Below, piece after piece: positions 1,061 to 23,314 of a stretch of 64,000 nucleotides of DNA (the first letter of the stretch is position 1; each line of letters begins with the position of its first letter). The notes under the pieces are model-generated. The model worked only from the letters and a program-made list of their open reading frames with translations, was not told the DNA's origin and did not search any database. Position numbers and translations under genes: made by a program. Source of the stretch: an uncultured bacterium (GTDB lineage Bacteria > Babelota > Babeliae > Babelales > Vermiphilaceae); assembly GCA_963707655.1 (NCBI GenBank), contig OY970172.1, positions 864,001-928,000 on the forward strand, given 5' to 3'.

Positions 1061-1885
1061 TTGTTTATGAAAAATCTGAGAATTAAAAACACATTCATTG
1101 TTGCCACGATTTTAACACTTGGCACCAGTTTTAATGAATTCGCGCAAAACAGCGGCCCTGACGCGCAACAACAGATACACCAAGTCCTCGACAAGTATCG
1201 AATATTTTTAGACGAAGGCACCCTTGCTGGTCAAGACTGGAGCAGCTTTTCTAAACCTCCAAAAACCAGGCACTTTACCTTCAAAAGAGCCTTTGAATTA
1301 TTTGCGGAAAAGAAAGGAACTGTGATAGTTGAATTAGGAACAACTCGAAGCTTTGTGCATGGGGGGCTTATTGGATGCAATAGTGATGATGTACGGTTCT
1401 GGACCCCTGATCAACCTGAAAACTGGGATTGGGGTGCTGGCGGCTTTACCCGCATGGCAGCAGAAAGTCTTATGCATCTTAACCCAAAAATTTACACAGT
1501 CGATTTAGCAAAAAGACACATTGAGCGCTGCAAGATTATTACTGCCCCTTTTGCGCATATAATACATTACTGCGTCTGCTCATCGCTTGATTTTCTTGCT
1601 ACAACAAATCAAAGAATTGACCTATTGTATATGGATACAGGTGACATGACCCCTTTGGAGCCCACGGCGCAACTACAGCTAGCCGAAGCACAAATTATCG
1701 TTCATCGTGATTTGATAATGCCCGGCGGACTCATTTTAATTGATGATGTCAGAAATCAGACTCCCAAAAAATTTGGTGAGCAATCAGATCTGGGCAAAGC
1801 AAAATATGCACTACCCTACCTACTCGAGAATGGTTTTGAAATCGTCGAAAATGAGTACCAAGTCCTGTTACGCAAAAAACAATAA
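1061..1885 (+). CDS. class I SAM-dependent methyltransferase-like protein with signal peptide
   Basis: IVELGTTR (motif I-like), IDLLYMD and PGGLILIDD motifs; hydrophobic N-terminus ending ...NEFA. Confidence 0.75.
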   Translation: MFMKNLRIKNTFIVATILTLGTSFNEFAQNSGPDAQQQIHQVLDKYRIFLDEGTLAGQDWSSFSKPPKTRHFTFKRAFELFAEKKGTVIVELGTTRSFVHGGLIGCNSDDVRFWTPDQPENWDWGAGGFTRMAAESLMHLNPKIYTVDLAKRHIERCKIITAPFAHIIHYCVCSSLDFLATTNQRIDLLYMDTGDMTPLEPTAQLQLAEAQIIVHRDLIMPGGLILIDDVRNQTPKKFGEQSDLGKAKYALPYLLENGFEIVENEYQVLLRKKQ

Positions 1886-1930: not shown

Positions 1931-3091
1931 ATGATAAAAACTAGTGATAATTACATAAATAAAAAATTAAAGCCAATTTTTTTTATTTTCTTCTTCTGCC
2001 TGTTTATTCAATCCCAGGCACATGGTGATTCCCATCTTACAAAAGTTCTGCATCTCAGCTTTCATTTGGGATGTATCAAGGAATTTGAAGCAGTCGCCCA
2101 CTATTTACCGATTGAGCTCACTTCTTGGTACATTCATTCAAACAGGGAGCAATTTGATGATCAAGCGGTGGGGGCTGCGATATACAACATAGGTCATGAT
2201 CGCGCAAAACGAATATGGGAGAAGAATAAAAACTATTTCAATCAGTTTGATATCATTCTTACTTCCGACACAGCCCCACTTTCTAGAATTTTCTTACAAA
2301 ATGGCTGGAAAAAACCATTGATCATATGGGTTTGTAATCGATTTGATTATGCTGATAGAGGAAGTCTTGACTGTAATTTCCCCGACAAAGAATACTACGA
2401 ACTATTCCAAAAAGCAGCTCAATTACCTAACGTAAAAATTATATCATACACTCCTTATGAACACTTTTATGCAAAAAAGAAGAACGTTCACTGGAAAGAG
2501 TGTGTCGTAAAGCCGATTGGGACGATTGAGACAGCGCTGTGGCACTCAGACGCCTCTCTAATACCTTCTTTTGTTGATCAAAAAAATACTTTTTTTGTTA
2601 ATCCTCGATTGGAATCCTGGGGCTCGCACCCGGGGCAACAATTTGATTACCTGCAAACAGAATGCGAAAGCCGCAACATCAACGTGTACATGGGAAAATA
2701 CAGCGGCCCGGAAGACATTAAAGATTTCAAAGGGATAATCTTTTTTCCCTATCAATGGTCTAATTTAGTTTTTTTTGAAAACATACAACGTGGAATTATC
2801 CATTTCGTGCCAACGATCAACTTCATCAATGCACTTAGAAAATTAAATAAACCGGTAAGCTATAATGCAGAAATACTCACAGGAAACTTTGAACTTTGTG
2901 AATGGTATATGCCGGAGCACAAAGACTTAATAGTTTATTTTGCTTCATGGGATGATTTAAAAGAGAAAATTGAAACAATCGATTATGAAGCAATGCACAA
3001 AAAAATTAAGGCTTTTGCAGAAACCCACCGAGAAAAAATGCTCACCGCATGGCAGCAGGTATTTCACCTCTTCGCCTCAAGCGGGATTTAA
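1931..3091 (+). CDS. putative glycosyltransferase (GT-B-like) with signal peptide
   Basis: 386-aa ORF in glycan cluster; C-terminal FPYQWSNLVFFENIQRG resembles a GT-B donor-binding segment; N-terminus KKLKPIFFIFFFCLFIQSQAHG. Confidence 0.5.
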   Translation: MIKTSDNYINKKLKPIFFIFFFCLFIQSQAHGDSHLTKVLHLSFHLGCIKEFEAVAHYLPIELTSWYIHSNREQFDDQAVGAAIYNIGHDRAKRIWEKNKNYFNQFDIILTSDTAPLSRIFLQNGWKKPLIIWVCNRFDYADRGSLDCNFPDKEYYELFQKAAQLPNVKIISYTPYEHFYAKKKNVHWKECVVKPIGTIETALWHSDASLIPSFVDQKNTFFVNPRLESWGSHPGQQFDYLQTECESRNINVYMGKYSGPEDIKDFKGIIFFPYQWSNLVFFENIQRGIIHFVPTINFINALRKLNKPVSYNAEILTGNFELCEWYMPEHKDLIVYFASWDDLKEKIETIDYEAMHKKIKAFAETHREKMLTAWQQVFHLFASSGI

Positions 3092-4099
3092 AAACTTATT
3101 TTTAATGCTTGGATCATTTTTATAACGGCATCGCACACATGGCGCATTGCGCGGTAAATATATAGATTTAATCTCAGGATTAAAAAAGCTGACAAAATTG
3201 GCAACGTTACTTGTGGTATGAATCAAATAATCACAGCGAGAAAGCAACAGGCATTCATAAAGTACTGGTACGCCTCCCGCAAAACCGGGCTTTTTCTTGT
3301 GCCACTCTTCGGGGTGACTGACCCAATACTGTGTATTTTCATCAATCAAATGCGGATCCTCCGTTCCAATCGCGCGAAAGGCATCAATATACAGCAACCT
3401 GCTGCCATATCTTTTTTTAAAAGCATTCATAGCTTGATGGCTATCCGATGCAAGGTAAACTTTAATATCTGCATCAGGATTTGCGTATAATAATGCATCA
3501 ACTTCTGCAAAATATTGTTCCAATGTTGGAAGACGACCACCGGGCACCTCGCGCGCGTGTCCCTTAGTAAAACGAACATGAACACCTATGCATGGAAAAC
3601 CTAGCATGTTTTTTTTATAGAAATCATCTACAACGCTAAGGATTTCTTCTTTAATGCGAATGTATTTTGTAATTTTTTCATGTAAAAATTTGCGATATGG
3701 CAAAAATTTATCGTATTCAATCCACTGTACAGAACATACCTGGTCATGGATTTCATGAAATGAACTTTGGCAAACAACATTGACCGCTCCAGCTTGCTTT
3801 GCATCGTCGGTATTGATGGGCTCGAAGTAGAGATCCCAACCATTCTCATGAATCTCATCTTTATAGGGAAAAAATTCATCCGCCCAATCAACATATACGC
3901 TTTGCATGCCCTCTTCTTCATAACGGATAAGAGCTGTAAGAACCTTTGAAAGCTCAGCAAAAAAACCTGCTCCCAAATGGGTTTTAACAACAAGATTTAT
4001 AGGATGAGAATTGACCATGTTGACATCAAGAGCATGAACACCGGAGGCACGCGCTAACAAAACTGTTAGCCCAACAAACAATATTTTTTTACTTTTCAT
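3077..4099 (-). CDS. NodZ-like (GT23-type) fucosyltransferase, copy 1, with signal peptide
   Basis: AGFF, IGVHVR, VYLASDS and LLLSRCDYLIHTTSNV fucosyltransferase motifs; signal ...ASGVHA. Confidence 0.75.
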   Translation of the reverse strand: MKSKKILFVGLTVLLARASGVHALDVNMVNSHPINLVVKTHLGAGFFAELSKVLTALIRYEEEGMQSVYVDWADEFFPYKDEIHENGWDLYFEPINTDDAKQAGAVNVVCQSSFHEIHDQVCSVQWIEYDKFLPYRKFLHEKITKYIRIKEEILSVVDDFYKKNMLGFPCIGVHVRFTKGHAREVPGGRLPTLEQYFAEVDALLYANPDADIKVYLASDSHQAMNAFKKRYGSRLLYIDAFRAIGTEDPHLIDENTQYWVSHPEEWHKKKPGFAGGVPVLYECLLLSRCDYLIHTTSNVANFVSFFNPEIKSIYLPRNAPCVRCRYKNDPSIKNKFLNPA

Positions 4100-4227
4100 A
4101 ACATTCCTTTTTTTAAACTTTTTACTTTATGAAGCGAGAAAAAATTGGCATTGCAACTATCTATTAAATGGTATATAAAACATACTTAATCGCAACTCGT
4201 ATACCATCTTACAAAAAAGGAAGTAGT

Positions 4228-5229
4228 ATGCATGCAAAAAAGCTTTTTTTATCATTCTTTCTGCTACCACTCTCACTTTACTCAAAGCAAGACATAGCTT
4301 TTAATAAAGTAGTAATCTGGGGATGGAAAATGCACAGCCATACCCACTCATATATTCATTATGCCTTTTACAAAACATTCAAACACCTTGGTTATGATAC
4401 GTATTGGTTTGATAATAAAGACGACCTTAAGGATTTTGATTTTGATAATGCTCTTTTTATAACTGAGGGACAGGTTGACCAAGACATTCCTTTACGGGAT
4501 ACCAGTTATTATATTTTGCATAATTGCCCTGATCCTAAATATAATGATTTGTTCGATAACAAACACGTACTCTTGTTAAAAGTGTATGTCCATGATGTTT
4601 TCACTAATGGACATCAAGATCTTCAAAAGCTTGATGACTATACTTATTGTTCTATGGCGGATAACGCTGTATATATGCCCTGGGCTACTGACCTTCTTCC
4701 TCATGAAATTGATGATGTAAAAGAACGGGTGAAGAAAAGCTGGGGAACAAAAAAAGAAAATATGACATATTGGATCGGGTCAACAGGCCAAGGTTATCAG
4801 GGCCCCGCCCCACAACTCGCACCTTTTATAAAAGCCTGCAAAGCGAATGGTATTGCTTTTCGAGTCGCAAAAAAACAGCATTGGCCGGGTGCTATGGACC
4901 CAGAAGAAAATCTTAATTTAATTTTCAAATCCTATCTTGCCCCCGCTATTCAATGCCAATGGCAGCTTGACCATGGCTATATCCCTTGCAGAATTTTCAA
5001 AAACATAAGCTATGGACAACTTGGCATCACTAATTCAAAAACTGTTTATGAGCTTTTTGACAAAAAGATCGTGTACAATGAGAATACCGAACAATTATTT
5101 TATGACGCGCAAGAGAGAATAAAACATCTCACTTTGCAAGAACTGCTTGACCTTATGGATTTCGTAAAAAATAAGCATACCTACATCAATCGAATTAGCA
5201 CACTATTGGAGGTATTTTCATTATTATAA
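4228..5229 (+). CDS. putative glycosyltransferase with signal peptide
   Basis: ATG 4228 after AAGGAAG; C-terminal YIPCRIFKNISYG...VKNKHTYINR resembles GT-B/CgeB-like tail. Confidence 0.6.
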   Translation: MHAKKLFLSFFLLPLSLYSKQDIAFNKVVIWGWKMHSHTHSYIHYAFYKTFKHLGYDTYWFDNKDDLKDFDFDNALFITEGQVDQDIPLRDTSYYILHNCPDPKYNDLFDNKHVLLLKVYVHDVFTNGHQDLQKLDDYTYCSMADNAVYMPWATDLLPHEIDDVKERVKKSWGTKKENMTYWIGSTGQGYQGPAPQLAPFIKACKANGIAFRVAKKQHWPGAMDPEENLNLIFKSYLAPAIQCQWQLDHGYIPCRIFKNISYGQLGITNSKTVYELFDKKIVYNENTEQLFYDAQERIKHLTLQELLDLMDFVKNKHTYINRISTLLEVFSLL

Positions 5230-5259: not shown

Positions 5260-6444
5260 ATGAAAGCACTTTCAACTATACTGACAATACTGCTACTTAC
5301 CATTTCTTTACCCTCGCAAGCTCACCAGCATTCGGCTGTCACGGTAATAGGGCTTGGACGGTTGGGATTATGTATGGCGCTTTGCTTAGAAAAGACAGGA
5401 TTTGATGTGTTGGGGGTTGATGTTATCTCTTCTTACGTAGACAGCCTTAATAAAAAAACTTTTACTTCAGACGAACCTTTCGTTACCGAATACCTAGGAA
5501 AGAGTACCCACTTTAAGGCCACTACCTCACTTGAAGAAGGAATTAATTCCTCAGACATATTTCTTATTATTGTCGATACTCCTTCAAGTCCACATGAAGC
5601 ATATGATCATTCTAAATTAAGTCGACTTTTATCAAATATTAATAAGCACAAAGTCAAAAATAAGCACATTGTGATTTGTTGCACCGTTTTCCCCGGTTAT
5701 ATCAGAAATATAGCATCTTTGCTGCTTAAAGACTGTGAAAATACTTCTATCAGCTACAATCCAGAATTCATTGCGCAGGGGAGCATCATAGATAATTTTG
5801 AACACCCTGATATGGTGCTTATCGGCGAAGGCTCTTCTGAAGTTGGCGATAGGTTGGAATCTATATATCGTAAGGTGTGTAAAAATGAGCCTAAATTTGC
5901 GCGCATGAGTGCTGACAGCGCAGAAATTGCCAAGCTTGCTATTAACTGTTTTTTAACCACAAAAATTGCCTATGCAAACATGGTTGGTGACATAGCAGAT
6001 CAAACATATGGCGCAGACAAATTTGATATTCTTAATGCGGTTGGCTCAGACTCCCGTATTGGAGCAAAATATCTTAAGCCCGGTTATGGCTTTGGCGGTC
6101 CTTGCTTCCCGCGCGATAATCGTGCCTTGGGGGCATATGCTGAGAAGATTGGTATAGAACCAACTATCCCTTGTGCGACAGATGCAGCCAACAAGGAACA
6201 CGCCTGCCATATGGCCGAAAATCTAATACGAACCAGGCAAGCGTACTATGTGTTTGAGAATGTAAACTACAAGGATAATTGCCCCGTGATTATTATAGAA
6301 GAATCTCAAAAACTTGCCGTTGCTGAAATCTTGGCAAAAAAAGGACACAAGGTTTTGATTAGGGACCGGACTGAAGTTGTTCATGCGGTTCAAGAAAAAT
6401 ATGGTTTTTTGTTTGAGTATGAGATTATTGAAGAGGTGAATTAG
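5260..6444 (+). CDS. UDP-glucose/GDP-mannose dehydrogenase family protein (short C-terminal domain) with signal peptide
   Basis: VIGLGRLG Rossmann motif, [23 protein letters not shown] catalytic Cys motif; signal ...LPSQA; RBS GGAG. Confidence 0.85.
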
Positions 6445-7345
6445 GTTTTTTTGCTCTGACAAGCATATGCCAACCTATTTCTGATTCAAGCTCTGCAAAG
6501 AGATCATCTGCTATATCCTTAAAGCAATCTTCTTTTTCATATTCGTATTGTATATATTTTTGAACGTTCCAGGGAAAAATATGTGCTTTGCGTATATCCA
6601 GGATTTCAAAATCTGAGAATAATCTTTTTGCGCCTTCTAACGTATAGGAATACGTTATAGGGCAGCCTGTTTGTGCTTCAGAGTAAGATGAAATAAGTTC
6701 ATCTAGTTTACTAAAATCCCATACTCCCGTTTCTTTCATCAAATTAAAGAGCTTATAACTGATTTTGGAATAAACCATCATTCTTATCTCGCCATCACTT
6801 TTGAGTAATTTTTTGCACTGTTTTAGAATTTTTTCAGGATGAGGGCTATGATGAATAACACCAAATGACCATACGAGATCAAACTGTTCTCCCTCAGGGA
6901 GCAATTGATCAAGCTCTTCTGCGTTGCCTAAAATAAAATTTGCTTCTAATCCATATACGGCAAATCTTTGCTTTGTCAGGGCCAAACTTTCTTTGGACAA
7001 TTCAATCACCGTCAATTTGGCGCCGTGCCGTGCAAAGTTTGTTGCCTCGGTTCCTATGCCGCAGCCAATTTCTAATACTGATTTCCCTTTCCATTTTTCA
7101 AACTCAGCAAAAGCGGGGATATGAGGTTCAATAAAATGTTTTCTTTTCTCTACTTCATCAAAATACTCGCGCGTTCCAACCGTTTTATTCGAATGGCGTA
7201 CGTTACAAGGGCGCCTATCCCAGAATTCTTTTACTTTATCAATAGAAACAGCCGAAAAATCTTGGCATTGCAATGGGGTCAAGACAATTGAGCTGCATAG
7301 AGCGCAGAGTAAAGATTTTAATTTTTTCATCGTATTTGCTTGCAT
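6425..7345 (-). CDS. class I SAM-dependent methyltransferase with signal peptide
   Basis: VLEIGCGIG motif [21 protein letters not shown]. Confidence 0.85.
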
Positions 7346-7544: not shown

Positions 7545-8564
7545 TTGATGATTGTACGACTCATTAAATTGTTATGTCTCCTTTTCTTAATAACCCATTC
7601 GTTAATATTACATCCATACGGCTCTATAAATCTTGTCGTTAAAACTCAGGTAGGAGCAGGTTTTTTTTCTGAGTTTTTAAAAGTCGTGGGATCTATTATT
7701 CATTATGAAGATGAAAGAGTTAATAGCGCGTGTGTCGACTGGACAAATCAGTTTTGTCCCTATAAGGACGATCCGCATGAAAATGGCTGGTGTCTTTACT
7801 TTGATCCTATTCATATGGGGAAAGAGGATAATACAGCTTCCCTTTCAAAAAACCATACCCTTGAGATTTGTGATGTGGTGCCTCCCGGAGTTCATCAATA
7901 CTATTGCAATGAACAGTTCATCAAGTACGATAAGTTTTTGCCATGTCGTAATTTTGTACATGAGAAAATTATGAAATACATTTATATTAAAAAAGAAATT
8001 CTTAATTTTGTTGATGATTTTTATAAGCAAAATATGCAAGGCTGTATCTGTATAGGTGTCCACTGCAGACATTCTTGGGCTCACGCCTGCGAAGTTCCTG
8101 GCCGTCAACTGCCAACATTACAAGAATATTTTTCAGAAATTGATGCATTATTATACGCAAATCCTGATGCAGATATTAAAATTTATATTGCATCGGATAG
8201 CCATCAAGCTATGAACGCTTTCAAAGAGAGATATGGCAGCAGATCATTGTGTATTGATGCATTTCGATCGGGCGAGAGAGAAGAGGCACATGTGATTAGT
8301 GCAAATACTTCATATTGGATAAACAATCCTGAGGAGTGGCATAAGAAGAAGCCTGGTTTTGCTGGAGGAGTTACAGTACTTTACGATTGCTTATTGCTTT
8401 CCCGTTGTGATTATCTTATCCATACGACAAGTAATCTCGCTACCGCCTCTACCTTTTTTAATCCTGATATTAAGTCTATATATTTGCCCCGTACTGCGCC
8501 ATGCGTGAGCTGTCATGAAAATTACGATTCAAGGAATCTCAAAAATAAATTTTTAAAACCCTAA
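7545..8564 (+). CDS. NodZ-like fucosyltransferase, copy 2, with signal peptide
   Basis: Collinear paralog of 3077..4099 (IGVHCR, IYIASDS, LLLSRCDYLIHTTSN). Confidence 0.75.
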   Translation: MMIVRLIKLLCLLFLITHSLILHPYGSINLVVKTQVGAGFFSEFLKVVGSIIHYEDERVNSACVDWTNQFCPYKDDPHENGWCLYFDPIHMGKEDNTASLSKNHTLEICDVVPPGVHQYYCNEQFIKYDKFLPCRNFVHEKIMKYIYIKKEILNFVDDFYKQNMQGCICIGVHCRHSWAHACEVPGRQLPTLQEYFSEIDALLYANPDADIKIYIASDSHQAMNAFKERYGSRSLCIDAFRSGEREEAHVISANTSYWINNPEEWHKKKPGFAGGVTVLYDCLLLSRCDYLIHTTSNLATASTFFNPDIKSIYLPRTAPCVSCHENYDSRNLKNKFLKP

Positions 8565-8808: not shown

Positions 8809-9648
8809 TTATTTTTTGAAAAGCATCTCTGCCGAGGTCCAATGAGGCAATGGTTTGTGCCAAAACGGAATATAATAAACAATGCCCTCCGATAAAAGTC
8901 CCGCGGCATAACTGAAAGAACTGCGACCTGTGACCAAAACATCGGCAAGGACCATAGCAGTAAATGCATCTTCCACAGATTCATTGAGATGCAAGATTAT
9001 ATCGTGAGCAATAAATGCGTTAAAATCTTCGCTTTTTCCTTGTGAAATAAGATGAATCAGAAGATCTTGCGAAGCATGGATTTTTCTTAATTGTGTAATA
9101 ATATCCAGAAAAAGTTGTTTCGGTGTATTGGCACCTTCTATGCGGTTGTCGTGGGGATTTGGTCTTCTCACATGAATAACAATATTGAAACTTTCATTGT
9201 TAAAATAATTGTTTCTATTTTTATTGGCTCTAAAAATTTTTCTTATTTTCTTTAAAGATAAGCTATTTGCGCATTCAGCAACATTCGCATCAAAAAATGC
9301 CTTGTAACCAGCATTGTTAGAATTTATACGACCCTCATTAACCTCAAAGTTATCTATAAAATTAACGAGCCATTCTTTTTTCGCTATGAAACAGGGGTCA
9401 GCATCATAATTGTGTTCCATTTCTTTAAATGGCGTGTAAACAAATTTCTTATTATTTAATTCAGCGTAAACGACAGATGCTATAATTTCTTGAAATTGAG
9501 AGCCAAAACCATCTGATTGTTTATGATTCGTTACAACTTCTTCGGATCTGGAATCAATTAAGCACTCACTGTATTGTTGCCACCCTAAAGTGCTTACAAT
9601 CCCCAATAGACACACATCCAACAAAGCGATTTTCATGCACAGGATCAT
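8809..9648 (-). CDS. putative fucosyltransferase-fold (GT11/GT23-like) glycosyltransferase with hydrophobic N-terminus
   Basis: DGFGSQFQ, IVIHVRR, ADVLVTGRSSFSYAAG motifs. Confidence 0.6.
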   Translation of the reverse strand: MILCMKIALLDVCLLGIVSTLGWQQYSECLIDSRSEEVVTNHKQSDGFGSQFQEIIASVVYAELNNKKFVYTPFKEMEHNYDADPCFIAKKEWLVNFIDNFEVNEGRINSNNAGYKAFFDANVAECANSLSLKKIRKIFRANKNRNNYFNNESFNIVIHVRRPNPHDNRIEGANTPKQLFLDIITQLRKIHASQDLLIHLISQGKSEDFNAFIAHDIILHLNESVEDAFTAMVLADVLVTGRSSFSYAAGLLSEGIVYYIPFWHKPLPHWTSAEMLFKK

Positions 9649-9660
9649 TTCTGTTTTTAT

Positions 9661-10404
9661 CTATTTTCTCATCTCTGCATGGTTTTTATCCAAAGCCAAT
9701 AATCGTTTATGATAAGGCAATTTCCAGCTTTCCGGATAACAATAGGAAGGATTTAAAATTACCGTAGGTGGGTTATCGATAAAATAACGGTTCAAATGGC
9801 TTTCATCGTGCCACACAGCCACCACCCCATTCTCAAGATCTTCGTTGATATTGGTCAACATAGTATGTACCAATTTCAAGAATTCTTTCGAATTGCCTCC
9901 ATGAAATCCACCGGCAAAATAATATTTTCCTTCATCGGGGGCAACATGGGCATTTGACTCAGATCTTGTTTCATAGGTGCCTCTCTTGCCTACAAAGCCG
10001 GGGTGTATGGTGGCAACACGCTCTCCCAAAATTTCATCCCCAACCGTATCTACAAACAACATATCTGCATCCAACGCGAAGAGATAATCCATATCATCAA
10101 ACATATCCCGATATTGATAGTAGGCAGCGCATCTCATCATAGTATCATAGGGCCAACCCAAGCGCGTATGCGGTAGACATACAATATCATCAGCCGCCGG
10201 CAATGAACCGTCAGTAAAAACAAAGTAAGTTATTGTATGATCAGGACAAAAATGCTTTCGAGCAGACTCAACAAGGGGAGGAACAAAATTAATATATTTT
10301 CCGGTAGCCACAACCAATAATCCCACATTGTATTGTGCTGAATTACTGGTTAAAATAATCATGTTCAGCAATAACAAGCCCGCTATTTTTACTATTTTAA
10401 TCAT
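9661..10404 (-). CDS. GT6 (ABO blood-group/alpha-1,3-Gal/GalNAc transferase family) with signal peptide
   Basis: ATGKY, YFVFTD, WPYDTMMR, DADM, YFAGGFHGG, WHDESHLNRY and LNPSYCYPE are GT6 motifs; ATG 10404 just after the gmd stop. Confidence 0.9.
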   Translation of the reverse strand: MIKIVKIAGLLLLNMIILTSNSAQYNVGLLVVATGKYINFVPPLVESARKHFCPDHTITYFVFTDGSLPAADDIVCLPHTRLGWPYDTMMRCAAYYQYRDMFDDMDYLFALDADMLFVDTVGDEILGERVATIHPGFVGKRGTYETRSESNAHVAPDEGKYYFAGGFHGGNSKEFLKLVHTMLTNINEDLENGVVAVWHDESHLNRYFIDNPPTVILNPSYCYPESWKLPYHKRLLALDKNHAEMRK

Positions 10405-10405
10405 G

Positions 10406-11572
10406 TTATCGTTCCTGGCTAGACAATGTCTTAAATTCATTTCGCAATTTTAAGGCGGCACATTCTGCTCGCACCATCTCTTTGACAAGTTCTTGAAAGC
10501 CTGTTTTTGGCTCCCATTCCAACACACGCCTCGCCTTTGAAGCATCTCCTAGCAAAAAATCAACTTCTGCTGGTCTAAAATATCTCGGATCAATAAAAAT
10601 TAAATCTTTTCCCGTCTGCACATCATAACCTACTTCATTTACCCCGGAACCACGCCATGCAATGGCAATACCAACCTGGCCAAAAGCTAACTCGACAAAT
10701 TCTCGTACCGAATGAGCTTGCCCGGTAGCTATCACAAAGTCATCAGGCACGTCTTGCTGCAACATAAGCCACATAGCCTCAACGTAATCAGCCGCATATC
10801 CCCAATCGCGCATTGCGTCCAAATTACCAAGATATAAAGCATCACGCAGGCTCAGGCTGATAGATACGGCAGCCTGCACTATTTTTTTGGTGACAAATGT
10901 TTCTCCCCGATAAAATGATTCATGATTGAATAAGATGCCGTTTACCGCAAACATTCCATATGCTTCGCGATAATTCCTGGTGATCCAATAAGCATACAAT
11001 TTTGCAACTCCATAGGGAGAGCGAGGATAAAAAGGGGTTGTTTCTTTTTGAGGAATTTCTTGTACTTTGCCAAACATCTCACTGCTAGATGCTTGATAAA
11101 ATTTTGCTTTATTTGTTAATCCGGTAATGCGTATCGCCTCTAAAAGAGACAGTGCGCCGAGCCCATCAACCATGCCAGTATACTCAGGCAGCTCAAATGA
11201 AACTTTAACATGACTTTGCGCTCCAAGATTATAAATCTCGTCTGGTTGAATTTGCTGCAATAAGCGAATCATGTTTGATGTATCAGTCAGATCACCGTAA
11301 TGCAAAAAAAAGCGAACATCTCCACCCTCGTGCTGATCACGATATAGATCATCAATACGCGCAGTATTAAAAGATGAAGAACGTCGCTTAATGCCGTGCA
11401 CCTCATAGCCTTTATTCAAAAGAAATTCTGTCAACAGGCGCCCATCCTGTCCGGTGATGCCGGTAATTAATGCCTTTTTACGAATTTTTTTTGCCGCGCA
11501 ATCATCTTCAGCACGAGAAGAATTACCTACTAAAAAACACGACAAGAGCAAAAGATGTACTATTTTTATCAC
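10406..11572 (-). CDS. gmd: GDP-mannose 4,6-dehydratase with N-terminal signal-peptide extension
   Basis: [50 protein letters not shown]. Confidence 0.97.
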
Positions 11573-11577
11573 TAAAT

Positions 11578-12579
11578 CTACTCTTGAGAAAAAATATTAT
11601 TTTGTCTACACCATTCTACTGTTTTTTTAATGCCTTCAGCCAACCCTGTTTGTGCCTGCCAACCCAACGCGGTAAGTTTATCCACATTAAGCAGTTTTCG
11701 AGGTGTACCATCCGGCCTTGATCTGTCAAAAACAAGCTCACCTTCAAAACCAACGGCCTCTTTAATAAGTTCTGCGGCTTCTCTGATAGTCACATCCTTG
11801 CCCACGCCTACATTCACCAATGAAGACCCTTCATAATGATTCATTAAAAAAACAGCCCCACTAGCAAGATCATCGACATATAAAAATTCACGATACGGAT
11901 TACCACTACCCCATATTGTTACCTCTCTGGCATCATCTCTCTTTGCCTGAATCATCTTTGCAATCAAAGCGGGTAATACATGGGACGTTTGCAAGTCAAA
12001 ATTATCATGTGGCCCATATAAATTAGTCGGCATACACGCAATAAAATTGGTGCCATATTGGCGATTATAAGCTTCACACGATTTCAAGCCTGCTATTTTG
12101 GCAATGGCATAAAATTCATTGCTTTTTTCAAGCTCACTGGTCAGTAAGTATTCTTCCTTGATCGGTTGCTCACAATTGCGAGGATAAATGCAGGAAGAAC
12201 CCAAGAAAAGAAGTTTTTTTATCTTATGCAGATATGAAGCATGAATAACGTTTGCTTCTATCATCATATTGTCATAAATAAATTGAGCCGGGTAATCAAT
12301 ATTTGCCTGAATGCCACCCACTTTTGCAGCGGCTAGAAAAACATATTCCGGTTTTTCTTTTTCAAAAAAAGTATTCACCGCTCCTTGATCACGCAAATCA
12401 AGCTCTTGGGAAGAAGCTGTTATAATGTCTGAATAGCCCCCTTCTTGAAGACAGCGGACGATAGCACGACCAACCAACCCTGTGTGACCCGCTACATATA
12501 TTTTTGAATCTTTTTGCATGATACTTTTTACATGAGCAATGGGTAGCAAGCAAAGTATCAAAAAAATAATTTTTTTCAT
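11578..12579 (-). CDS. fcl: GDP-L-fucose synthase with N-terminal signal-peptide extension
   Basis: [59 protein letters not shown]. Confidence 0.97.
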
Positions 12580-12593
12580 AACTGTTTTTCCTT

Positions 12594-13415
12594 TTATGTG
12601 ATAAAAAGTTTTTCAAGAGAATCGTATGCTTTTTTGCCCCTTATTTCCTGCTCCAGCTGTATTTGAAAAGACCGATTGGTTGCCCGATCCCCAATGGGAT
12701 TGCTCCGGTTATAGATATAAAGAATGTCTTCTATGTAACGCGAATGATTGCCCGCCATCTCAAGCATGGGGAACATGAAAGCCAGATCCCATGTCATTGG
12801 AAAAAATGCATTGTTATAAAGCAAGTCTTCTTTGTTAATTAATTTAAATAGACGGGCATAGAATGTGCGCAAATGAGTGGTAACCCACGGATAACGCCGG
12901 TAAGATTTGCTCTCGATTATCGATTGTGGCAATGCGTGAATCCATGGATCGCGAGTGTTTGCGGGCCAAGACACATAACTGCCGTAGGTAATCCATACAT
13001 TGGGGTCTGTATATTCGTGATTAAGTGTTGTAAGCACTTTGTTATGTGCAAACCAATCATCACCATCAAGCGTTACTATGATAGCTGTATCGGGACAGGA
13101 ATGAATGGCATTATAAAGATTTTCCAAAGCCCCACACCGCTGCATATTGTTAATCAAAATCACTTTATGGCCACGAGGATGAGTTTTGATTAAGGTTACC
13201 ATTAAATCATAGGTGCGGTCCGCTGAACAATCATTGATGTAAACAATGTGATAATTATCGTAATCTTGCTCCAGAGCAGAAAGAAGATTTTTCTCGCACC
13301 ATTGCTCATTATTATATGAGGGAATAATAACTACAAAATACAGCTGTTGAGCCGTCAATGGTCTGAAAAAAATAATTGTGAGCAAAATTATTAGTATTGA
13401 TCTTATGTTCTTCAT
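12594..13415 (-). CDS. GT2 family glycosyltransferase with signal peptide
   Basis: VVIIPSYNN, YINDCSAD, TLDGDDW. Confidence 0.9.
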   Translation of the reverse strand: MKNIRSILIILLTIIFFRPLTAQQLYFVVIIPSYNNEQWCEKNLLSALEQDYDNYHIVYINDCSADRTYDLMVTLIKTHPRGHKVILINNMQRCGALENLYNAIHSCPDTAIIVTLDGDDWFAHNKVLTTLNHEYTDPNVWITYGSYVSWPANTRDPWIHALPQSIIESKSYRRYPWVTTHLRTFYARLFKLINKEDLLYNNAFFPMTWDLAFMFPMLEMAGNHSRYIEDILYIYNRSNPIGDRATNRSFQIQLEQEIRGKKAYDSLEKLFIT

Positions 13416-13422
13416 TTTCTTG

Positions 13423-14313
13423 CTATCGGCTTATAAAACTAAATTCATATTCCATGTGCGCCCCTTTATTATCAATTTTATGTAAGGGAGCACTATCAAT
13501 TTTTAATCCTTTTTCAAACAACTCAAGCATCTCTTTTGTGGATAAACCCTGCATATTACGATTATTCACGTATTCCTGTTGTGTCAAATTTAGGGGTACA
13601 TTAACTATCTTACTGTGCCTGAAACAAAGGCCTTTTTTGTTACCAACCAATTTTGCTTGCCGAGCCCATGCTCCCTCCAAAGAATTTGGCGCTCGATAGG
13701 GTAAAGAGCAAATGGTGTCTATAATATCTGATTTTTTGTACAAGGTCATATCAACGGTGTTTGGGTATCCCCAATCATACTTGCCGTCTCCCAAGGTCCA
13801 GCACACAATTTCATGGGCAATGGGAGTGAGTGGCGGTAATGGTTGCTTGCAGTTAAGCATATAGCATTCGGTTAAATTAAGACCGAGACGAAAGTAAAAA
13901 CCATAAGCTCCCGCATATTGCAACACTTCAATGCAGCGCTGCAGATCGATTGCATCAGTAACTATAATGTCATCCACCGCAAAAAGTATGTAATTATTCT
14001 TTGACGAGAGCAAAAAAGACTCTGTGATAGGCTTAAAATCTTTTTGCGGCTCATTCCCCTGCCGACAAAAAACAACCTTATCAAAATCTTCTTTAACAGA
14101 TTGATACGATTGCTCAAAGCGCTCATCGCTTGCGCGATAAACAACACAGATATTTTCAGCTCCCGTTACGTACTGCTCAACCGATTCCAGCAATGCATAA
14201 AGCTGCATGGGGCGGTCATACGAAAAAATAATTAAATCAGTTTTATCATCGGTTTTATTAGTGGCAAACGAACAGAATAATAAAAAAAGAACAGTGATTT
14301 TTCTTACAAACAT
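13423..14313 (-). CDS. putative GT-A fold glycosyltransferase with signal peptide
   Basis: LIIFSYDRPMQLYALLES and YILFAVDDI (DXD-like); cluster context. Confidence 0.65.
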   Translation of the reverse strand: MFVRKITVLFLLFCSFATNKTDDKTDLIIFSYDRPMQLYALLESVEQYVTGAENICVVYRASDERFEQSYQSVKEDFDKVVFCRQGNEPQKDFKPITESFLLSSKNNYILFAVDDIIVTDAIDLQRCIEVLQYAGAYGFYFRLGLNLTECYMLNCKQPLPPLTPIAHEIVCWTLGDGKYDWGYPNTVDMTLYKKSDIIDTICSLPYRAPNSLEGAWARQAKLVGNKKGLCFRHSKIVNVPLNLTQQEYVNNRNMQGLSTKEMLELFEKGLKIDSAPLHKIDNKGAHMEYEFSFISR

Positions 14314-14343: not shown

Positions 14344-15723
14344 TTACGCGCCGGGCTGCCCCAATTTATAGCATACAATAGGTTTTTTACGTGTCGCTTG
14401 CGTAAGGCGAACAACATCTCTCATATCAATAATTATTGGGTCAACCATATACTCACTAACTGTTGCATAATCAAATGCTTTAAATTCTTGCCACTCGGTG
14501 AGTATGACCAGTGCATCAGCCTGCTCAATCGCTTGCTCTTTTGTTTGGCAATATTCAATGGAAGGTAGAACTTTTTTCATATTGCTCATCGCAATAGGAT
14601 CGTATGCTTTAACATGAGCACCCATGCTTAAAAGCGAGGTGATAATGTAAATGGCAGGGGCGCTGCGCACGTCGTCAGTATTTGCTTTAAAGGCTAACCC
14701 CCAAATTGCTATGGTTTTGTTTTTAAGATCATTACCACAAAAGTCGCAAACCTTGCGAACAACATACATCTTTTGATGGTAATTTGCTTCTACAGATGCC
14801 GTAATAATGCGCAAGGGCGACCCCAACTCTTCTCCTTTTTTCATCAAGGCGAGCGCGTCTTTGGGAAAACATGATCCGCCAAATCCTGGACCGGGAACAA
14901 GAAACTTATTGCCTATTCGTTTGTCGAGCCCCATACCCTTGGCCACATCAGTAATATTGGCTCCTGATTTATCGCACAGTTGCGCTATCTCATTAATGTA
15001 AGCAACTTTGACCGCGAGAAAAGCGTTTGAAGCGTACTTTATAGTTTCCGCCGATGCAAGGTCCGTGTGCAAGACTGGAATGTTTTTTACTAACAATGGA
15101 GCATACAGAGAATGGAGAACGTGCGCATCATCTTCTGATTCTGCTCCTATAATTATGCGATCGGGATTGAAAAAATCATGTACGGCGAATCCTTCTCGCA
15201 AGAATTCAGGATTAGAGATCACCCGCACGTCAAAAGCGCTCTCGTGTTCTTGTATTATAGACATGATTCGAGCGCTCATGCCAATAGGTAATGTACTTTT
15301 GATACAGACCGTTTTGTTACCGTTAAGATTCATGCCAATGGTATTTGCAACAGCCTCAACTGCTGAAATATCAGCAGACCCATTAGGACCAGCGGGTGTC
15401 CCCACTGCTATGAAAACAACGTCTGATTGTTGAATTGCTCGACCAATATCATCAGTAAAAAATAATCTTGCAGCTTCTGTATTTTTTTGAACCAGTTCAG
15501 GCAATTCAGGCTCAAAGATAGGCATTTCTCCACGCTGCAGCTGTGCAATCTTTGCCGCATCAATATCAGCGCAATAGACAGTATGGCCAAGATCAGCCAG
15601 ACAAGCGCCCAAAACAAGACCAACGTAACCCGTTCCTATAACCGCAACATGCTGCTTGTCATCTGCGTGCAGAAAAAACGAGCAAACAAGCAATAGGGCT
15701 ACGATTAATATTCTCTTCTTCAT
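14344..15723 (-). CDS. ugd: UDP-glucose 6-dehydrogenase with N-terminal signal-peptide extension
   Basis: VAVIGTGYVG, IAVGTP, SNPEFLREG, GPGFGGSCFPKD, GLAFKANTDDVR; signal MKKRILIVALLLVCSFFLHA. Confidence 0.93.
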   Translation of the reverse strand: MKKRILIVALLLVCSFFLHADDKQHVAVIGTGYVGLVLGACLADLGHTVYCADIDAAKIAQLQRGEMPIFEPELPELVQKNTEAARLFFTDDIGRAIQQSDVVFIAVGTPAGPNGSADISAVEAVANTIGMNLNGNKTVCIKSTLPIGMSARIMSIIQEHESAFDVRVISNPEFLREGFAVHDFFNPDRIIIGAESEDDAHVLHSLYAPLLVKNIPVLHTDLASAETIKYASNAFLAVKVAYINEIAQLCDKSGANITDVAKGMGLDKRIGNKFLVPGPGFGGSCFPKDALALMKKGEELGSPLRIITASVEANYHQKMYVVRKVCDFCGNDLKNKTIAIWGLAFKANTDDVRSAPAIYIITSLLSMGAHVKAYDPIAMSNMKKVLPSIEYCQTKEQAIEQADALVILTEWQEFKAFDYATVSEYMVDPIIIDMRDVVRLTQATRKKPIVCYKLGQPGA

Positions 15724-17568: not shown

Positions 17569-18663
17569 ATGAGACATCCAGTATGGATTTTAAACAGCGC
17601 GCTCCTTTTTTTGTTTATTATCGCCGCTGGTTTTATTTTTTTTTCATGGCAAAGACCCCCTGAGCGAGAAGACATTGAGCCTGAATTGGTAGTACAGCAA
17701 GTGCGCCGCAACCTTCCTCGCGCCAATATAGAAAAAATTTATGAAAATGATCTTTTTGGAACGTACCATGCAGCGATCGCTCCAGAACAAGCGGAGTCAG
17801 AAATGCTCATGCCGGAAGCGCCTGCGCCCGCTCCCATTAAAGCTCCTGAAAAACAAACGGTACAATTTTTGGATCCTTTGGCGGTCACTCTTAAAGGGAT
17901 CATGACTTTTTCCGGTAATGATTCAAAAAATAGAGCAGTACTCGAGGACAATGCCACAAAAGACGAACGCCTTTATAAAGTTGGGGACAAAATAGAAGAT
18001 GCTCAGCTTATACGAATATTCAGTAACAAGATAATGTTCATCCGCTCTAACGGGCAACAAGAAGTGCTTTATCTGCGGGAAAAAGATGCCTTGACCGATC
18101 CAAGCTATATGGGTGTTTATGGCTGGGCCGACGTGATAGAGCGGGTCAATGAAAGCCTTTTTGCAGTAAATCCTGAACTGTTTATTACGCGCGTGCAAAA
18201 TCTTGGCCAGTTCATTGATATGTTGGATCTCACTACTGCATACAAAAAAGGTGATAGCGCCGGCTGCCGTATTGGTCACCTAGAGGATAATTCACTGGGG
18301 AACGCTCTTGGGTTGCAGCAGGGAGACATCATCATAAGCGTTAATGATATACCTGCAACTACCACTTCTCACCGCTTTAAAATTTATAAAGCGTTGGTAT
18401 CTCACGATACACATGATACTATTAAGGTTGTTTTAAGAAGAAACAACATGCATTTAAATATAGAATACAAACTAGAAAAAATAAAAAAACGAGATCATGC
18501 TACAGAACAGGAAGCAAATGAGCGCGAGCAAGATCGCTTAAAAATTTTACAGAACAAACAAGTATTCGCACCAACAATGCAAGATATACGGATAAGAGAA
18601 AAAAATTATATGCGAGAGCAAGGTGGTAAACCAGCCACCCCTCTTTCTAACCAAGCCGAGTAA
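17569..18663 (+). CDS. gspC: type II secretion protein GspC-like (TM, HR domain, PDZ)
   Basis: N-terminal TM; LKGIM...YKVGDKIEDAQLIRI HR-domain pattern; LGLQQGDIIISVND PDZ; precedes a secretin. Confidence 0.8.
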   Translation: MRHPVWILNSALLFLFIIAAGFIFFSWQRPPEREDIEPELVVQQVRRNLPRANIEKIYENDLFGTYHAAIAPEQAESEMLMPEAPAPAPIKAPEKQTVQFLDPLAVTLKGIMTFSGNDSKNRAVLEDNATKDERLYKVGDKIEDAQLIRIFSNKIMFIRSNGQQEVLYLREKDALTDPSYMGVYGWADVIERVNESLFAVNPELFITRVQNLGQFIDMLDLTTAYKKGDSAGCRIGHLEDNSLGNALGLQQGDIIISVNDIPATTTSHRFKIYKALVSHDTHDTIKVVLRRNNMHLNIEYKLEKIKKRDHATEQEANEREQDRLKILQNKQVFAPTMQDIRIREKNYMREQGGKPATPLSNQAE

Positions 18664-18668
18664 CCACG

Positions 18669-21107
18669 ATGAACAAAAAGATTATATCTCTGCTTTTTAT
18701 AGTGCTCCATGCTTCATCGCAAGCGGCGAATGAGAGGCATCCCAACTTTGTTAATCGAAGAAAAAATATTTTATTATCAGCAGTTGATCAACCGTCTCTC
18801 AATACTAACATAGACGCAAACGAAGCAGATGTTCCTAAAGAAAGAAAAAACACCCCTGACGACAAAGAATTCCGTGATATAGATGCACAACCAAATGATG
18901 TGCAGACAGAGGAAAGCGGAGGGGTTGAAATAGGCGTTGGTAAAATAATGCAGAAAGAAACCCCCGAAATTGATGATGAAGAAACTATAGATTTCAATTT
19001 TGAAAACACGAGCCTCGATCAGTTGATTAATTATGTTGCAGATGTGTTTCACTATCAATTCATAAGCCCTGAAATATTGGATCCCTTACCGCAGGGAGAA
19101 AAGAAGATAAAAGGGAATCTTGTCTCATTCAAGACAAACCGCTCCCTCTCCAAGCACGAGGCATGGGATCTTTTTCTTACCTTTTTAAATATGGCCGGTT
19201 TTGGTGTTACTCCCGACCCTCAACCAAATACGTTCCGCATTCTTTCTTTTGACACAGCAAAACGAGCGCCATTACCCACATTTATTGGTGTTGACTTAAA
19301 CAAAATACCAGAAGACATCGCCGACAGCGATCAGCTGATTCGCTATGTTTATTTCATTGAAAATACTACTATTGAGGCGTTAGAGCCTATGATCAACCAG
19401 ATGAAAAGCCCAACAGCTACTGTTCTTATGCTTAAAGAACACAGAGCCATACTCATAATTGATCGCGCTTATAACACGGTAAGCTTAATGCGCATCATAA
19501 AAGAGTTGGACAAAGTAAGCATGCCGCAAACCATGTCTGTGCTAAAACTGCGCCGCGCAGGGGCAAAAGAGGTTGCCGAGCTCTATCAAGCGCTTATCAA
19601 AGGCGGAGATGAAAAAGCTCCTGCGCAAAATCGTGTCTTGCAAAGAAAGCAGCCAACCTCATACTACTTTCCTGAAAATGTACGCGTAATCGCTGAAGAG
19701 CGCACCAACTCACTCATTTTGCTTGGACCGGTCGAATCAATTAAAAAAATTGAAGATTTCGTGATTCAATATATTGATGTTGAATTAGACAAATCATTCT
19801 CTCCGCTTTTTGTTCATAATCTACGCTATGCCGATGCCGGGATCGTTTCTGAAATTATGAGTGAGGTGACCAAAATAGGCTCTGAAAGTGGATTGCGCGC
19901 AATAGGTGGCGTTCGCGGAACAGATAAATTTTTAAAACCAATGACCTTTACGCCCGACAAAAGCACCAACAGAATTATTATCAAAGCTGATTATGAAGAT
20001 TACTTGAAAGCAAAAGCCATTATTGAAAAATTGGATGAGCCACAAGCTCAAGTTGCTATTGAAGTGCTTATTCTTTCTCTCAGCGTCAGCGATATGAAAA
20101 TTCTGGGCACACAATTGCGCACCAAACAACCCTGTGGAACGAATGGTATTTTTGGCAATAACGTCACCTGGCAAACTTCAGGATTATTCGGCGGTTCAGG
20201 ATACACACAAGAGGGGGTGGTGGTCAATTCAGCAGGGAGTGGCGCCAGTCGGTTGCTTGGTGATTTAATAAACTTGGTAACCACTGCAGGAGCGGGTAGC
20301 ACCGTTGTCTCTCTGGGTGATGCTGCTGGTGCTTATGCTATTATACAGGCGCTGGAGAGCATCAACTCTACACAAACTGTTGCCAATCCATTTCTCCTCG
20401 CGACTAATCGCACAAAAGCAACTGTTGAAGTGGGTACAACGGAGCGTGTGATTGCGTCATCGATTATTCAAACAGGGACCGACGTGGGCCAAGACACGTA
20501 CAAAGATGAAGCGGCAGATTTAACGGTAGTGGTAACCCCAACCATAAACTCAGATGGCATGATAACTCTTGATCTAAACATTAGTCTTGAAAGTTTTCTT
20601 GGTGTTTTCAACCCGGCATTTGTACAAAAAAATACCCAAAAAGTAGTAACCAAAGCTCTTGTTGCTGACAAAGAGGTAATTGCTGTTGGCGGATTAGTTC
20701 AGGACACCACTAATGACACGGTAAGCAAAGTGCCTATTCTGGGCGATATACCAATTATTGGCTGGCTCTTTAAAAACAGAAACAAACAAGAGATGAAGCA
20801 AAGCTTACTCATTCTCATTTCAACACAAATTGTGCGGCCCGATAATAATGGGGGTGGTGACGCGTTCACTTTAAGGCATATCGATAAGTATGAAAGCTCA
20901 TTGTCTAGCCTGTATCCTCGTGAGCAAAAAATTGATCCTATTCATCGCTGGTTCTTTGAAGATAGGCAAGAAGATTCGGGCCAATTGTTGGATGACTTTG
21001 TATTCAACAGACACGCGCATGCTACCGAAGGTATGGCGGCTAAAAGGAAGCGGAATCGAAAAGCTAAAGCGCCCTCCAAAGAAACAAACAGTGGAGTTGC
21101 CCCATGA
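18669..21107 (+). CDS. gspD: type II secretion secretin GspD (copy 1)
   Basis: N-domain repeats (ERTNSLILLG), LDEPQAQVAIEVLI, VTPTIN, KVPILGDIPIIGWLFK. Confidence 0.9.
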   Translation: MNKKIISLLFIVLHASSQAANERHPNFVNRRKNILLSAVDQPSLNTNIDANEADVPKERKNTPDDKEFRDIDAQPNDVQTEESGGVEIGVGKIMQKETPEIDDEETIDFNFENTSLDQLINYVADVFHYQFISPEILDPLPQGEKKIKGNLVSFKTNRSLSKHEAWDLFLTFLNMAGFGVTPDPQPNTFRILSFDTAKRAPLPTFIGVDLNKIPEDIADSDQLIRYVYFIENTTIEALEPMINQMKSPTATVLMLKEHRAILIIDRAYNTVSLMRIIKELDKVSMPQTMSVLKLRRAGAKEVAELYQALIKGGDEKAPAQNRVLQRKQPTSYYFPENVRVIAEERTNSLILLGPVESIKKIEDFVIQYIDVELDKSFSPLFVHNLRYADAGIVSEIMSEVTKIGSESGLRAIGGVRGTDKFLKPMTFTPDKSTNRIIIKADYEDYLKAKAIIEKLDEPQAQVAIEVLILSLSVSDMKILGTQLRTKQPCGTNGIFGNNVTWQTSGLFGGSGYTQEGVVVNSAGSGASRLLGDLINLVTTAGAGSTVVSLGDAAGAYAIIQALESINSTQTVANPFLLATNRTKATVEVGTTERVIASSIIQTGTDVGQDTYKDEAADLTVVVTPTINSDGMITLDLNISLESFLGVFNPAFVQKNTQKVVTKALVADKEVIAVGGLVQDTTNDTVSKVPILGDIPIIGWLFKNRNKQEMKQSLLILISTQIVRPDNNGGGDAFTLRHIDKYESSLSSLYPREQKIDPIHRWFFEDRQEDSGQLLDDFVFNRHAHATEGMAAKRKRNRKAKAPSKETNSGVAP

Positions 21108-22762: not shown

Positions 22763-23304
22763 AATTCTTGGAACCAATAAAAAATTTTATCGAATCAAAA
22801 GATCAAAAAGAATTTTTGCGATACTTAATTATCAGCCTTGGAGTTATCGTATTTTTAGCTGTTCTTGTTTTGTGGTGGCGCCATTATCGGTTATCATCTG
22901 CAGAAGAAATGATACAAGATATTAATACCGAGCGAGAACAGGTAAAGCAGATCTTGAGTAAACACAAGCATCTGGAAAAAGAGGAAAAAGATCTGAATGA
23001 GCTTATGGCAAAAAATCCTGATTTTACCATTCTTGGCTACATAACCCACTTACTCGATGAATTTAGGCTCAGGTCCAGTACTCCTCTTGAGGAAAACATC
23101 AGTGCAGGCGCAGGAACCGATACGTATGCAGAAATTATATCGCACATAGAGATTGTCGATACTGACATGCAAACCTTAGCAAAATTATTTCAAGAAATTG
23201 AAAAAGAAAAACGAGTCAGCATCAAGTCGATTGATATTACCCGAGCAAAACCAACAACCGTTAACGTCAGACTTGAAATAGCTACATTGCGTAAAAAAAC
23301 ATAA
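22759..23304 (+). CDS. GspM-like inner membrane protein
   Basis: N-terminal TM, coiled coil and ferredoxin-like C-terminus; position after GspL-like gene. Confidence 0.6.
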   Translation: MKFLEPIKNFIESKDQKEFLRYLIISLGVIVFLAVLVLWWRHYRLSSAEEMIQDINTEREQVKQILSKHKHLEKEEKDLNELMAKNPDFTILGYITHLLDEFRLRSSTPLEENISAGAGTDTYAEIISHIEIVDTDMQTLAKLFQEIEKEKRVSIKSIDITRAKPTTVNVRLEIATLRKKT

Positions 23305-23314
23305 TAAATAGCCC

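Follow-up and report, generated by a model that had tools for sequence, protein, structure and literature searches.

In bacterial envelope biology, nucleotide sugars and NAD(P)H are assumed to be kept in the cytoplasm and glycans to be flipped outward on lipid carriers. The GDP-L-fucose pathway encoded by gmd-fcl-manC of Escherichia coli (PDB 1db3 and 1bsv) is a cytoplasmic one. The locus described here shares with it full-length matches for both enzymes, the motif residues, and the adjacency of the two genes; it differs in that both enzymes and their partners bear leaders and in that neither manC nor an initiating transferase or clear flippase was found in the genome. A second precedent is Chlamydia trachomatis, whose secreted glycogen enzymes use host UDP-glucose (Gehre 2016, PMC4829429; Triboulet 2022, PMC9251005). 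Here the likeness lies in secretion signals on sugar enzymes, which are used outside the cell's own cytoplasm on a host nucleotide sugar. In the available text of those reports, however, the signals are of type III, the product is a storage glucan, the site is the vacuole lumen, and the system is experimentally shown (PMC4829429 and PMC9251005), whereas our locus combines Sec-type leaders, a redox pathway needing NADPH, and diverse transferases and is a prediction. It would work like a secreted sugar pathway of the chlamydial type and is not a member of it.

A third parallel comes from the chloroviruses, in which the parasite likewise supplies Gmd, GMER, and transferases acting on host GDP-mannose; according to the accessible part of that report, the viral enzymes are produced in the host cytoplasm and require no export (PMC5408694). 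The viral relatives seen for proteins encoded at our locus are leaderless, whereas the proteins themselves bear leaders. Closest in lineage is the Sec/type II secretome of the Dependentiae described for Babela (PMC4378268) and Chromulinavorax (PMC6561590), with signal peptides on 44% of the proteins and a type II system. The available text of these two papers treats ankyrins, proteases, and nucleases and, supplements with signal-peptide lists aside, holds no passage on exported sugar enzymes. Our literature searches, whose scope lay outside most subscription papers, found no report of an exported or Sec-leader-bearing Gmd or Fcl; the single match in one search, PMC3417536, deals, in the part available, with apicomplexans. 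Judged by their sequences, the enzymes are ordinary family members, and what is unusual is their predicted location.

Source genome and recognition of leaders

The window, i.e., the whole stretch of 64,000 nucleotides analyzed here, comes from a 1.09-Mb Babeliales (Dependentiae) chromosome represented by a single contig of 1,091,075 bases (G000), the Gmd of which has its closest named relatives in "Candidatus Dependentiae"/Babeliales. Members of this group are protist parasites, according to the accessible portions of PMC4378268 and PMC6561590. The contig ends meet inside glmS if one base is allowed, and the chromosome is therefore probably closed; its listed completeness is 88.6%. Several housekeeping genes (lon, groEL, leuS, and others) are broken into two or three open reading frames (ORFs), probably by sequencing indels.

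Leaders were scored with a hand-written Sec-signal rule rather than with SignalP or another trained predictor, and those of orthologues were sorted by eye. The rule called 31 of 1,834 internal-Met windows (1.7%, its false-positive rate) and 135 of 1,989 antisense windows (6.8%) signal-like. In the source genome it was positive for 447 of 1,014 ORFs (44%), matching the 44% share of signal peptides given in the available text on Chromulinavorax (PMC6561590). With leaders this common, it is their conservation on orthologues that excludes chance, and not the score of a single gene. Outside the cluster in the window, Pfam and NCBIfam scans took in 307 of the 429 proteins positive by the rule and 346 of the 357 longer ones negative by it.

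The same abundance in both organisms would fit a reading in which leaders are tolerated by-products, arising where signal-coding sequence is easily gained, and the exported enzymes are nearly idle. We regard this as highly improbable. Leader-bearing copies keep their catalytic residues, housekeeping enzymes that score positive do so (by inspection) through strands inside their domains and not through extensions, and the trait spans whole pathways and two phyla and tracks the loss of manC.

The gmd and fcl genes

The gmd gene (10406..11572, reverse strand), the only copy in the genome (one match), starts with GTG at 11572 and encodes a GDP-mannose 4,6-dehydratase of 388 aa including its leader (PF16363, E = 2e-152; PDB 7kf3, E = 7e-153). 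The fcl gene (11578..12579, reverse strand) starts with ATG at 12579 and encodes GDP-fucose synthase, an NADPH-consuming epimerase/reductase of 333 aa including its leader (Pfam Epimerase; PDB 1bsv, E = 2e-101). By our rule, predicted Sec signal peptides are encoded at 11510..11572 in gmd (21 codons, with a basic start, a hydrophobic core, and Ala at -1) and at 12523..12579 in fcl (about 19 codons), both on the reverse strand. The Pfam GDP_Man_Dehyd match begins at Gmd residue 35 and the Epimerase match at Fcl residue 27, while the PDB alignments begin at residues 31 and 25, respectively; because all of them start downstream, the first 20 to 30 residues are true extensions.

Behind the extensions, Gmd covers positions 1 to 332 of the 332 in PF16363, with the GxxGxxG, [ST]xE, and YxxxK motifs all present. 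SPYGVAK in Gmd and SSCIYP, YAIAK, and SHV in Fcl align with solved Gmd structures and the E. coli GDP-fucose synthetase, and S107-S108-C109, Y136, K140, and H179 in 1bsv numbering are kept in the alignment. We take these residues, together with the aligned Gmd motifs, to be the catalytic ones. Close paralogues of Fcl with other products exist; on the alignments, Gmd and Fcl are intact family members with predicted GDP-mannose dehydratase and GDP-fucose synthase activities. The initial annotation had read both proteins as signal-peptide-bearing enzymes with intact catalytic motifs, and the ORFs, the Pfam/PDB offsets, and the alignments agree with that reading.

Its argument for the extended starts is likewise borne out. 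The gmd GTG sits 5 nt past the fcl TAG, and no ATG, GTG, or TTG occurs in gmd between the hydrophobic core and KALITG, where there is one ATT. The extended fcl start is preceded by a ribosome-binding site, AAGGA (12589..12593, reverse strand), whose duplex energy with the 3' end of the genome's own 16S rRNA, -4.9 kcal/mol, equals the median of 306 starts of leader genes; Met21 of Fcl (12517-12519), directly behind the leader, has no such site (-1.1). The ribosome-binding site of the gmd GTG is weak (-2.5), from which we infer translational coupling to fcl. Automatic annotation cuts off starts of this kind, as in the database copy of this very Gmd, which begins at residue 8 of the long form.

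Both leaders have the makeup of substrates of Sec and signal peptidase I (basic n-region, short hydrophobic core, small residues at -1 and -3, and a translated N terminus, by our rule) and are built like those on the Omp85, OmpH, and solute-binding proteins of the genome. The n-regions of the Gmd and Fcl leaders listed contain, by eye, no twin-arginine pair of the Tat type, and neither leader in the window has the lipobox Cys at +1 of a lipoprotein signal.

A cluster of leader-bearing glycosylation genes

The initial annotation framed Gmd and Fcl as a pair. The pair is real, but it belongs to a whole leader-bearing glycosylation cluster and to a wider set of cofactor enzymes discussed below. 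Between 414 and 15723 in the window, 12 of 15 genes pass the rule, two more are leader-bearing by eye, and one is doubtful; three further leader genes lie before the window. None of the 15 encodes a membrane helix behind the leader or a multipass protein.

Two leader-bearing NodZ-type fucosyltransferases, one at 3077..4099 (reverse strand; PF05830 over the cutoff) and a second, 62% identical to it, at 7545..8564 (forward strand), are present, and the former likely consumes GDP-fucose. An unnamed protein with no Pfam match (8809..9648, reverse strand) has an HxRR motif of the sort found in GT11/GT23 fucosyltransferases; its leader was recognized only by eye, and a relative has one too. Other leader-bearing transferases are a GT6 enzyme (9661..10404, reverse strand; PF03414), starting at its second Met (10404), where the ribosome-binding site scores -4.3; a GT2 enzyme (12594..13415, reverse strand; Pfam and our rule); and a GT-A-like protein (13423..14313, reverse strand). 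Leaders mark the relatives of the last in Dependentiae (Babeliales) and chlamydial loci, and seven viral contigs have it without one. On these contigs (L234-L240), the leaderless relatives stand with GT6, GT2, and, once, a member of the 4168-5229 family.

The cluster further encodes a leader-bearing, NAD-dependent enzyme of the UDP-glucose/GDP-mannose dehydrogenase family (14344..15723, reverse strand) and a second, divergent UDP-sugar dehydrogenase with a leader (5260..6444, forward strand), as well as a SAM-dependent methyltransferase with a leader (6425..7345, reverse strand), all three by Pfam and our rule, and a methyltransferase-like protein with a rule-positive leader and Pfam matches below the cutoff (1061..1885, forward strand). 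Two unnamed proteins complete the set. One (4168..5229, forward strand) has a leader, recurs in related clusters, and is leaderless in one viral contig; the other (1931..3091, forward strand) has a leader seen by eye and missed by the rule and belongs to a family found in Chlamydiota and giant viruses. The nearest Atlas clusters of the latter are chlamydial and giant-virus ones. A PHROGs scan of eight unnamed proteins of the cluster gave one match, itself unnamed.

Among 67 hand-picked proteins, related clusters contain leader-bearing GT10, GT32, sulfotransferases, FkbM methyltransferases, and WecB, and anchor-like and lipoprotein-like transferases occur in them as well. The clusters of G017, "Ca. 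Algichlamydia," and the isolate Noda2021 (L143, L203, and L162) bring together leader-bearing sulfotransferases, WecB, Anp1-like and CAP59-like proteins, and GT10; this enzyme complement is a Golgi-like set.

The idea that Gmd and GT6, both beginning MIKIV, reuse one signal module was dropped. The two starts share 31 of 60 bases against a null of 21 +/- 3.8 (reached by 0.9% of random pairs), but the comparison was a post hoc choice of one pair out of about 100; MIK begins 14 of the 447 leaders, and in G001, a genome of the same genus, the Gmd and GT6 genes start with unrelated sequences.

Conservation of the leaders among relatives

The family search suggested at the outset turned up leader-bearing Gmd and Fcl across Babeliales and in some Chlamydiota. 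Gmd is present in 35 of 61 Babeliales genomes. All 45 copies were read and sorted by eye into 27 with and 18 without a leader; at least one leader-bearing copy occurs in 24 of the 35 genomes, and six have one plain and one leader-bearing gmd together. Leaders were further seen on 16 of 29 readable Fcl proteins and about 16 of 32 ManC proteins read (two or three of these weak) and on none of eight GalU proteins (seven relatives and that of the source genome). Among the best 120 database matches to Gmd, leaders are confined to the closest group, two members of which are named Dependentiae/Babeliales, and no match named from another phylum has one. Of 201 Chlamydiota genomes sampled, 70 encode Gmd, with a leader in 11 of the 69 genomes in which the start was readable; one further chlamydial genome with a leader-bearing Gmd lies outside the sample, five chlamydial Fcl proteins have leaders, and five extra chlamydial copies lie outside these leader counts. 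Some of these chlamydial copies come from metagenome bins and could be contaminants, but in "Ca. Algichlamydia" the leader-bearing pair lies on a long contig. Noda2021, a cultured isolate that grows in Vermamoeba (PMC8812299), has leaders on both Gmd and Fcl.

The leaders on Gmd diverge in sequence and are conserved in shape. Position -1 is Ala in 23, Ser in 8, and Gly in 4 of 37, a preference partly built into the rule. The hydrophobic runs are short (median uncharged run of 16, including the c-region), and many of them reach right up to the first strand. For 13 of the 37 leaders, no more than two residues separate the predicted cut from the first Rossmann strand, which leaves no space for an uncut anchor and favors cleavage. 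In 28 of 37 (two false rows dropped), no Met follows the core. Catalytic residues are intact across the leader-bearing Gmd copies in the alignment. In Fcl, the Met behind the leader is kept in 17 of 22 relatives, so that a cytoplasmic form is possible in them. The suggestion that a signal had been grafted onto a normal Fcl gains from this retention, yet a Met just past the leader is found in 65 of 374 cases genome-wide, making it weak evidence.

On these grounds, it is quite probable that the leaders of Gmd and Fcl are cleaved and the enzymes exported by Sec. The alternative would place the enzymes on the cytoplasmic side, with the leaders serving as membrane tethers or being bypassed by internal translation starts and GDP-mannose entering through an unrecognized carrier. 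Every characterized Gmd and Fcl is cytosolic, NADPH is produced in the cytoplasm of this cell (zwf and gnd), Fcl keeps Met21, the leader of Gmd is followed by a basic patch, KKIRKK, the genome encodes an EamA carrier as well as membrane proteins without a name, and relatives show mixed leader states. The last occur in five genomes (G018, G046, G023, G024, and G029): leader-bearing ManC with plain Gmd and Fcl in G018 and G046, plain ManC with leader-bearing Gmd in G023 and G024, and plain Fcl with leader-bearing Gmd in G029 and G023. Nevertheless, the lack of an internal start in gmd, the ribosome-binding site at the extended fcl start, the shortness of the hydrophobic runs and their frequent contact with the first strand, the common build with the leaders of Omp85, OmpH, and solute-binding proteins, and the pairs of plain and leader-bearing Gmd, adenylate kinase, TrxB, and superoxide dismutase, which imply two compartments, make this alternative unlikely.

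A tree of 90 Gmd rows, including 34 chlamydial copies and 12 outgroup rows and omitting a highly divergent copy (G055, L151), was used to follow the history of the leaders. In the free tree, all 12 chlamydial leader-bearing copies group with seven from Babeliales (SH-aLRT 91). Transfer of a leader-bearing gmd between Babeliales and Chlamydiota was considered and set aside, as chlamydial monophyly is not rejected (AU p 0.495), and no donor is claimed. The leader state is clustered on the trees and needs 8 to 10 changes, yet a topology uniting all leader-bearing copies is not rejected (p 0.503). The G018 Gmd (L121:9295-10452) is leaderless and placed among the leader-bearing copies, and the gmd of G042 is split near its start (L150/L379). 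A recurring gene order, manC, plain gmd, fcl, leader-bearing gmd, and leader-bearing GT2 (L119, L123, L124, L125, and L141), adjoins a wecB-wecC and oxidoreductase locus that is leaderless and includes membrane transferases.

Supply of GDP-mannose

The initial annotation noted the absence of manB and manC from the window and proposed host-derived GDP-mannose. The absence of manC extends to the whole genome, in which no match to PF01050 or to a ManC query was found; the one nucleotidyltransferase match is a leaderless GalU, and GlmU is also present. A leaderless PGM/PMM-like gene, possibly manB, lies elsewhere in the genome. Across Babeliales, searches for manC found nothing in 9 of the 18 genomes whose Gmd copies all bear leaders, versus 0 of 17 with plain Gmd; the Fisher p value of about 0.001 (from a table of 9/18 versus 0/16) is overstated, as kin are not independent. 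Several of the nine genomes are fragmented, and three are single contigs. In the other nine, the ManC beside leader-only Gmd is itself leader-bearing in seven. The confinement of manC loss to genomes with leader-bearing Gmd fits the proposal, and from these sequence patterns the GDP-mannose of this Gmd is likely host derived.

Leaders on enzymes of cofactor metabolism

Fcl consumes NADPH, which the normal periplasm lacks. The zwf and gnd products of the source genome are leaderless, which counts against a periplasmic pathway in that NADP would have to be re-reduced outside; GDP-mannose and NADPH would moreover need passage across the outer membrane. A thioredoxin reductase-thioredoxin fusion (L078:3650-5107; 343650-345107 in the genome; relatives L313-L337) bears on this point. 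It is found in 29 of 41 Babeliales genomes, with the GGGDSA and CxxC motifs kept, and of 25 fetched, the 22 that were read all begin with a hydrophobic leader, which in several cases includes a lipobox-like Cys and in others is anchor-like; a plain cytoplasmic TrxB stands beside it in the source genome. These features imply that the fusion is a tethered, outward-facing NADPH enzyme and would point to NADPH at the envelope.

Leader-bearing second copies beside plain ones are further found in the genome for adenylate kinase (L112:3353-3997), Fe/Mn superoxide dismutase (L094:5747-6517), and a HAD hydrolase, as for thioredoxin reductase; a glutamine synthetase (L100:9552-10913), a ferritin (L064:5498-6154), and acetyltransferases, including a double GNAT protein (L062:3802-5058), bear leaders as well. 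The leader-bearing adenylate kinase is patchy, with two close relatives in 40 genomes, one of which was read and has a leader. MutS-V and AAA ATPases with leaders were also noted.

Envelope, secretion, and site of action

The genome encodes SecDF, YidC, two signal peptidases I, Lgt, LspA, BamA, and three TLC ATP/ADP carriers. LpxC, a PF02397 initiating transferase, the GT4 family (PF00534), and MetK were not found in it, and Wzx (PF01943) was seen only below the cutoff. With neither an initiating phosphoglycosyltransferase nor a clear flippase found, no Wzx/Wzy or ABC lipid-carrier locus of the usual kind was recognized in the genome; flippases or nucleotide-sugar carriers might be among several unnamed multipass membrane proteins and the ABC-2 permeases. 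Chromulinavorax, as far as the available text goes, is likewise without lipopolysaccharide genes (PMC6561590).

We put at about even the chance that the periplasm or envelope is where Gmd and Fcl act, using GDP-mannose and NADPH likely drawn from the host. The leader would direct each enzyme through the Sec channel, where signal peptidase would cut it. The periplasm would share small molecules with the host compartment, an exchange that the inner-membrane ATP/ADP carriers already depend on. GDP-mannose from the host (in genomes with an exported ManC, mannose-1-phosphate and GTP) would enter together with NADPH, and Gmd and Fcl would there produce GDP-fucose feeding the NodZ-type transferases. 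Coexported transferases might then decorate proteins or lipids of the envelope with a surface glycan that is fucosylated and methylated, built without the usual lipid-carrier/flippase route in a cell without a lipid A pathway.

The presence of a type II-like machine means that export need not end at the periplasm. Genes for GspC, two secretins, PilM, and GspM adjoin the cluster (17569-25981 in the window), and GspE, two GspF proteins, and a prepilin peptidase are encoded elsewhere. After Sec, such a machine might secrete folded Gmd and Fcl to the vacuole lumen or host cytosol, where GDP-fucose would serve host targets or the parasite's outer surface, much as chloroviruses proceed with a Gmd and GMER of their own. 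GDP-mannose, NADPH, and SAM are directly present in the host cytosol, the Gmd and Fcl leaders appear cleavable rather than tethering, and viruses have relatives of the cluster proteins. The accessible text on Babela reports no secretion system other than type II, and signal peptides on 79 of 126 ankyrin proteins, thought to be host targeted (PMC4378268). No type III apparatus was named in the profile scans of the source genome, which gave only F1-ATPase cross-matches. We nonetheless hold secretion into the host to be possible but rather doubtful: of 118 other loci, a single one was seen to have secretin genes near the cluster, anchored and lipoprotein-type partners could not diffuse off, the host cytosol may already make GDP-fucose, which would lower the need, and the cluster proteins are, by eye, without the Met-Asp/Glu mature start of many putative effectors. 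A functional link between the glycan cluster and the neighboring type II genes was rejected, the adjacency not being conserved. The tethered TrxB-Trx fusion, the anchored transferases in related clusters, and the unconserved type II linkage lead us to a mild preference for the periplasm or envelope as the site of action. The proposal of GDP-fucose synthesis outside the cytoplasm thus gains cleavable-looking Sec-type leaders conserved across the order, while export itself and the compartment stand as predictions.

More broadly, the predicted export by Sec of ManC, Gmd, and Fcl, of UDP-sugar dehydrogenases, of fucosyl-, methyl-, and sulfotransferases, and of an NADPH-thioredoxin system allows the tentative suggestion, somewhat short of an even chance, that in Babeliales and some environmental chlamydiae the space outside the inner membrane is a second, Golgi-like metabolic compartment running on host nucleotides and making surface glycans without flippases. 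Such a compartment would break the rule that no NAD(P)H or nucleotide-sugar chemistry takes place in the periplasm. A lineage-wide, Sec-exported GDP-fucose pathway would, if true, itself be an exception to the confinement of nucleotide sugars to the cytoplasm, hint at the nature of the coat on the LPS-free outer membrane of Dependentiae, and mean that the parasite leaves donor chemistry to host pools. The Vermamoeba-grown Noda2021, which has both leader-bearing enzymes, makes the idea directly testable.

Other observations on exported proteins

A small residue followed by Met-Asp or Met-Glu occurs at residues 14 to 34 in 66 of 374 soluble leader proteins of the genome, versus 103 of 11,900 background windows, and many exported proteins seem to begin with Met-Asp/Glu after cleavage. 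Host proteins with such starts are N-acetylated; the mature start might resemble these or be a secretion tag. The two signal peptidase I genes are almost adjacent (L097:10997-13602; 730997-733602 in the genome). An APH(9)-like aminoglycoside phosphotransferase gene, scoring below the curated cutoff, lies at L072:15084-16094.
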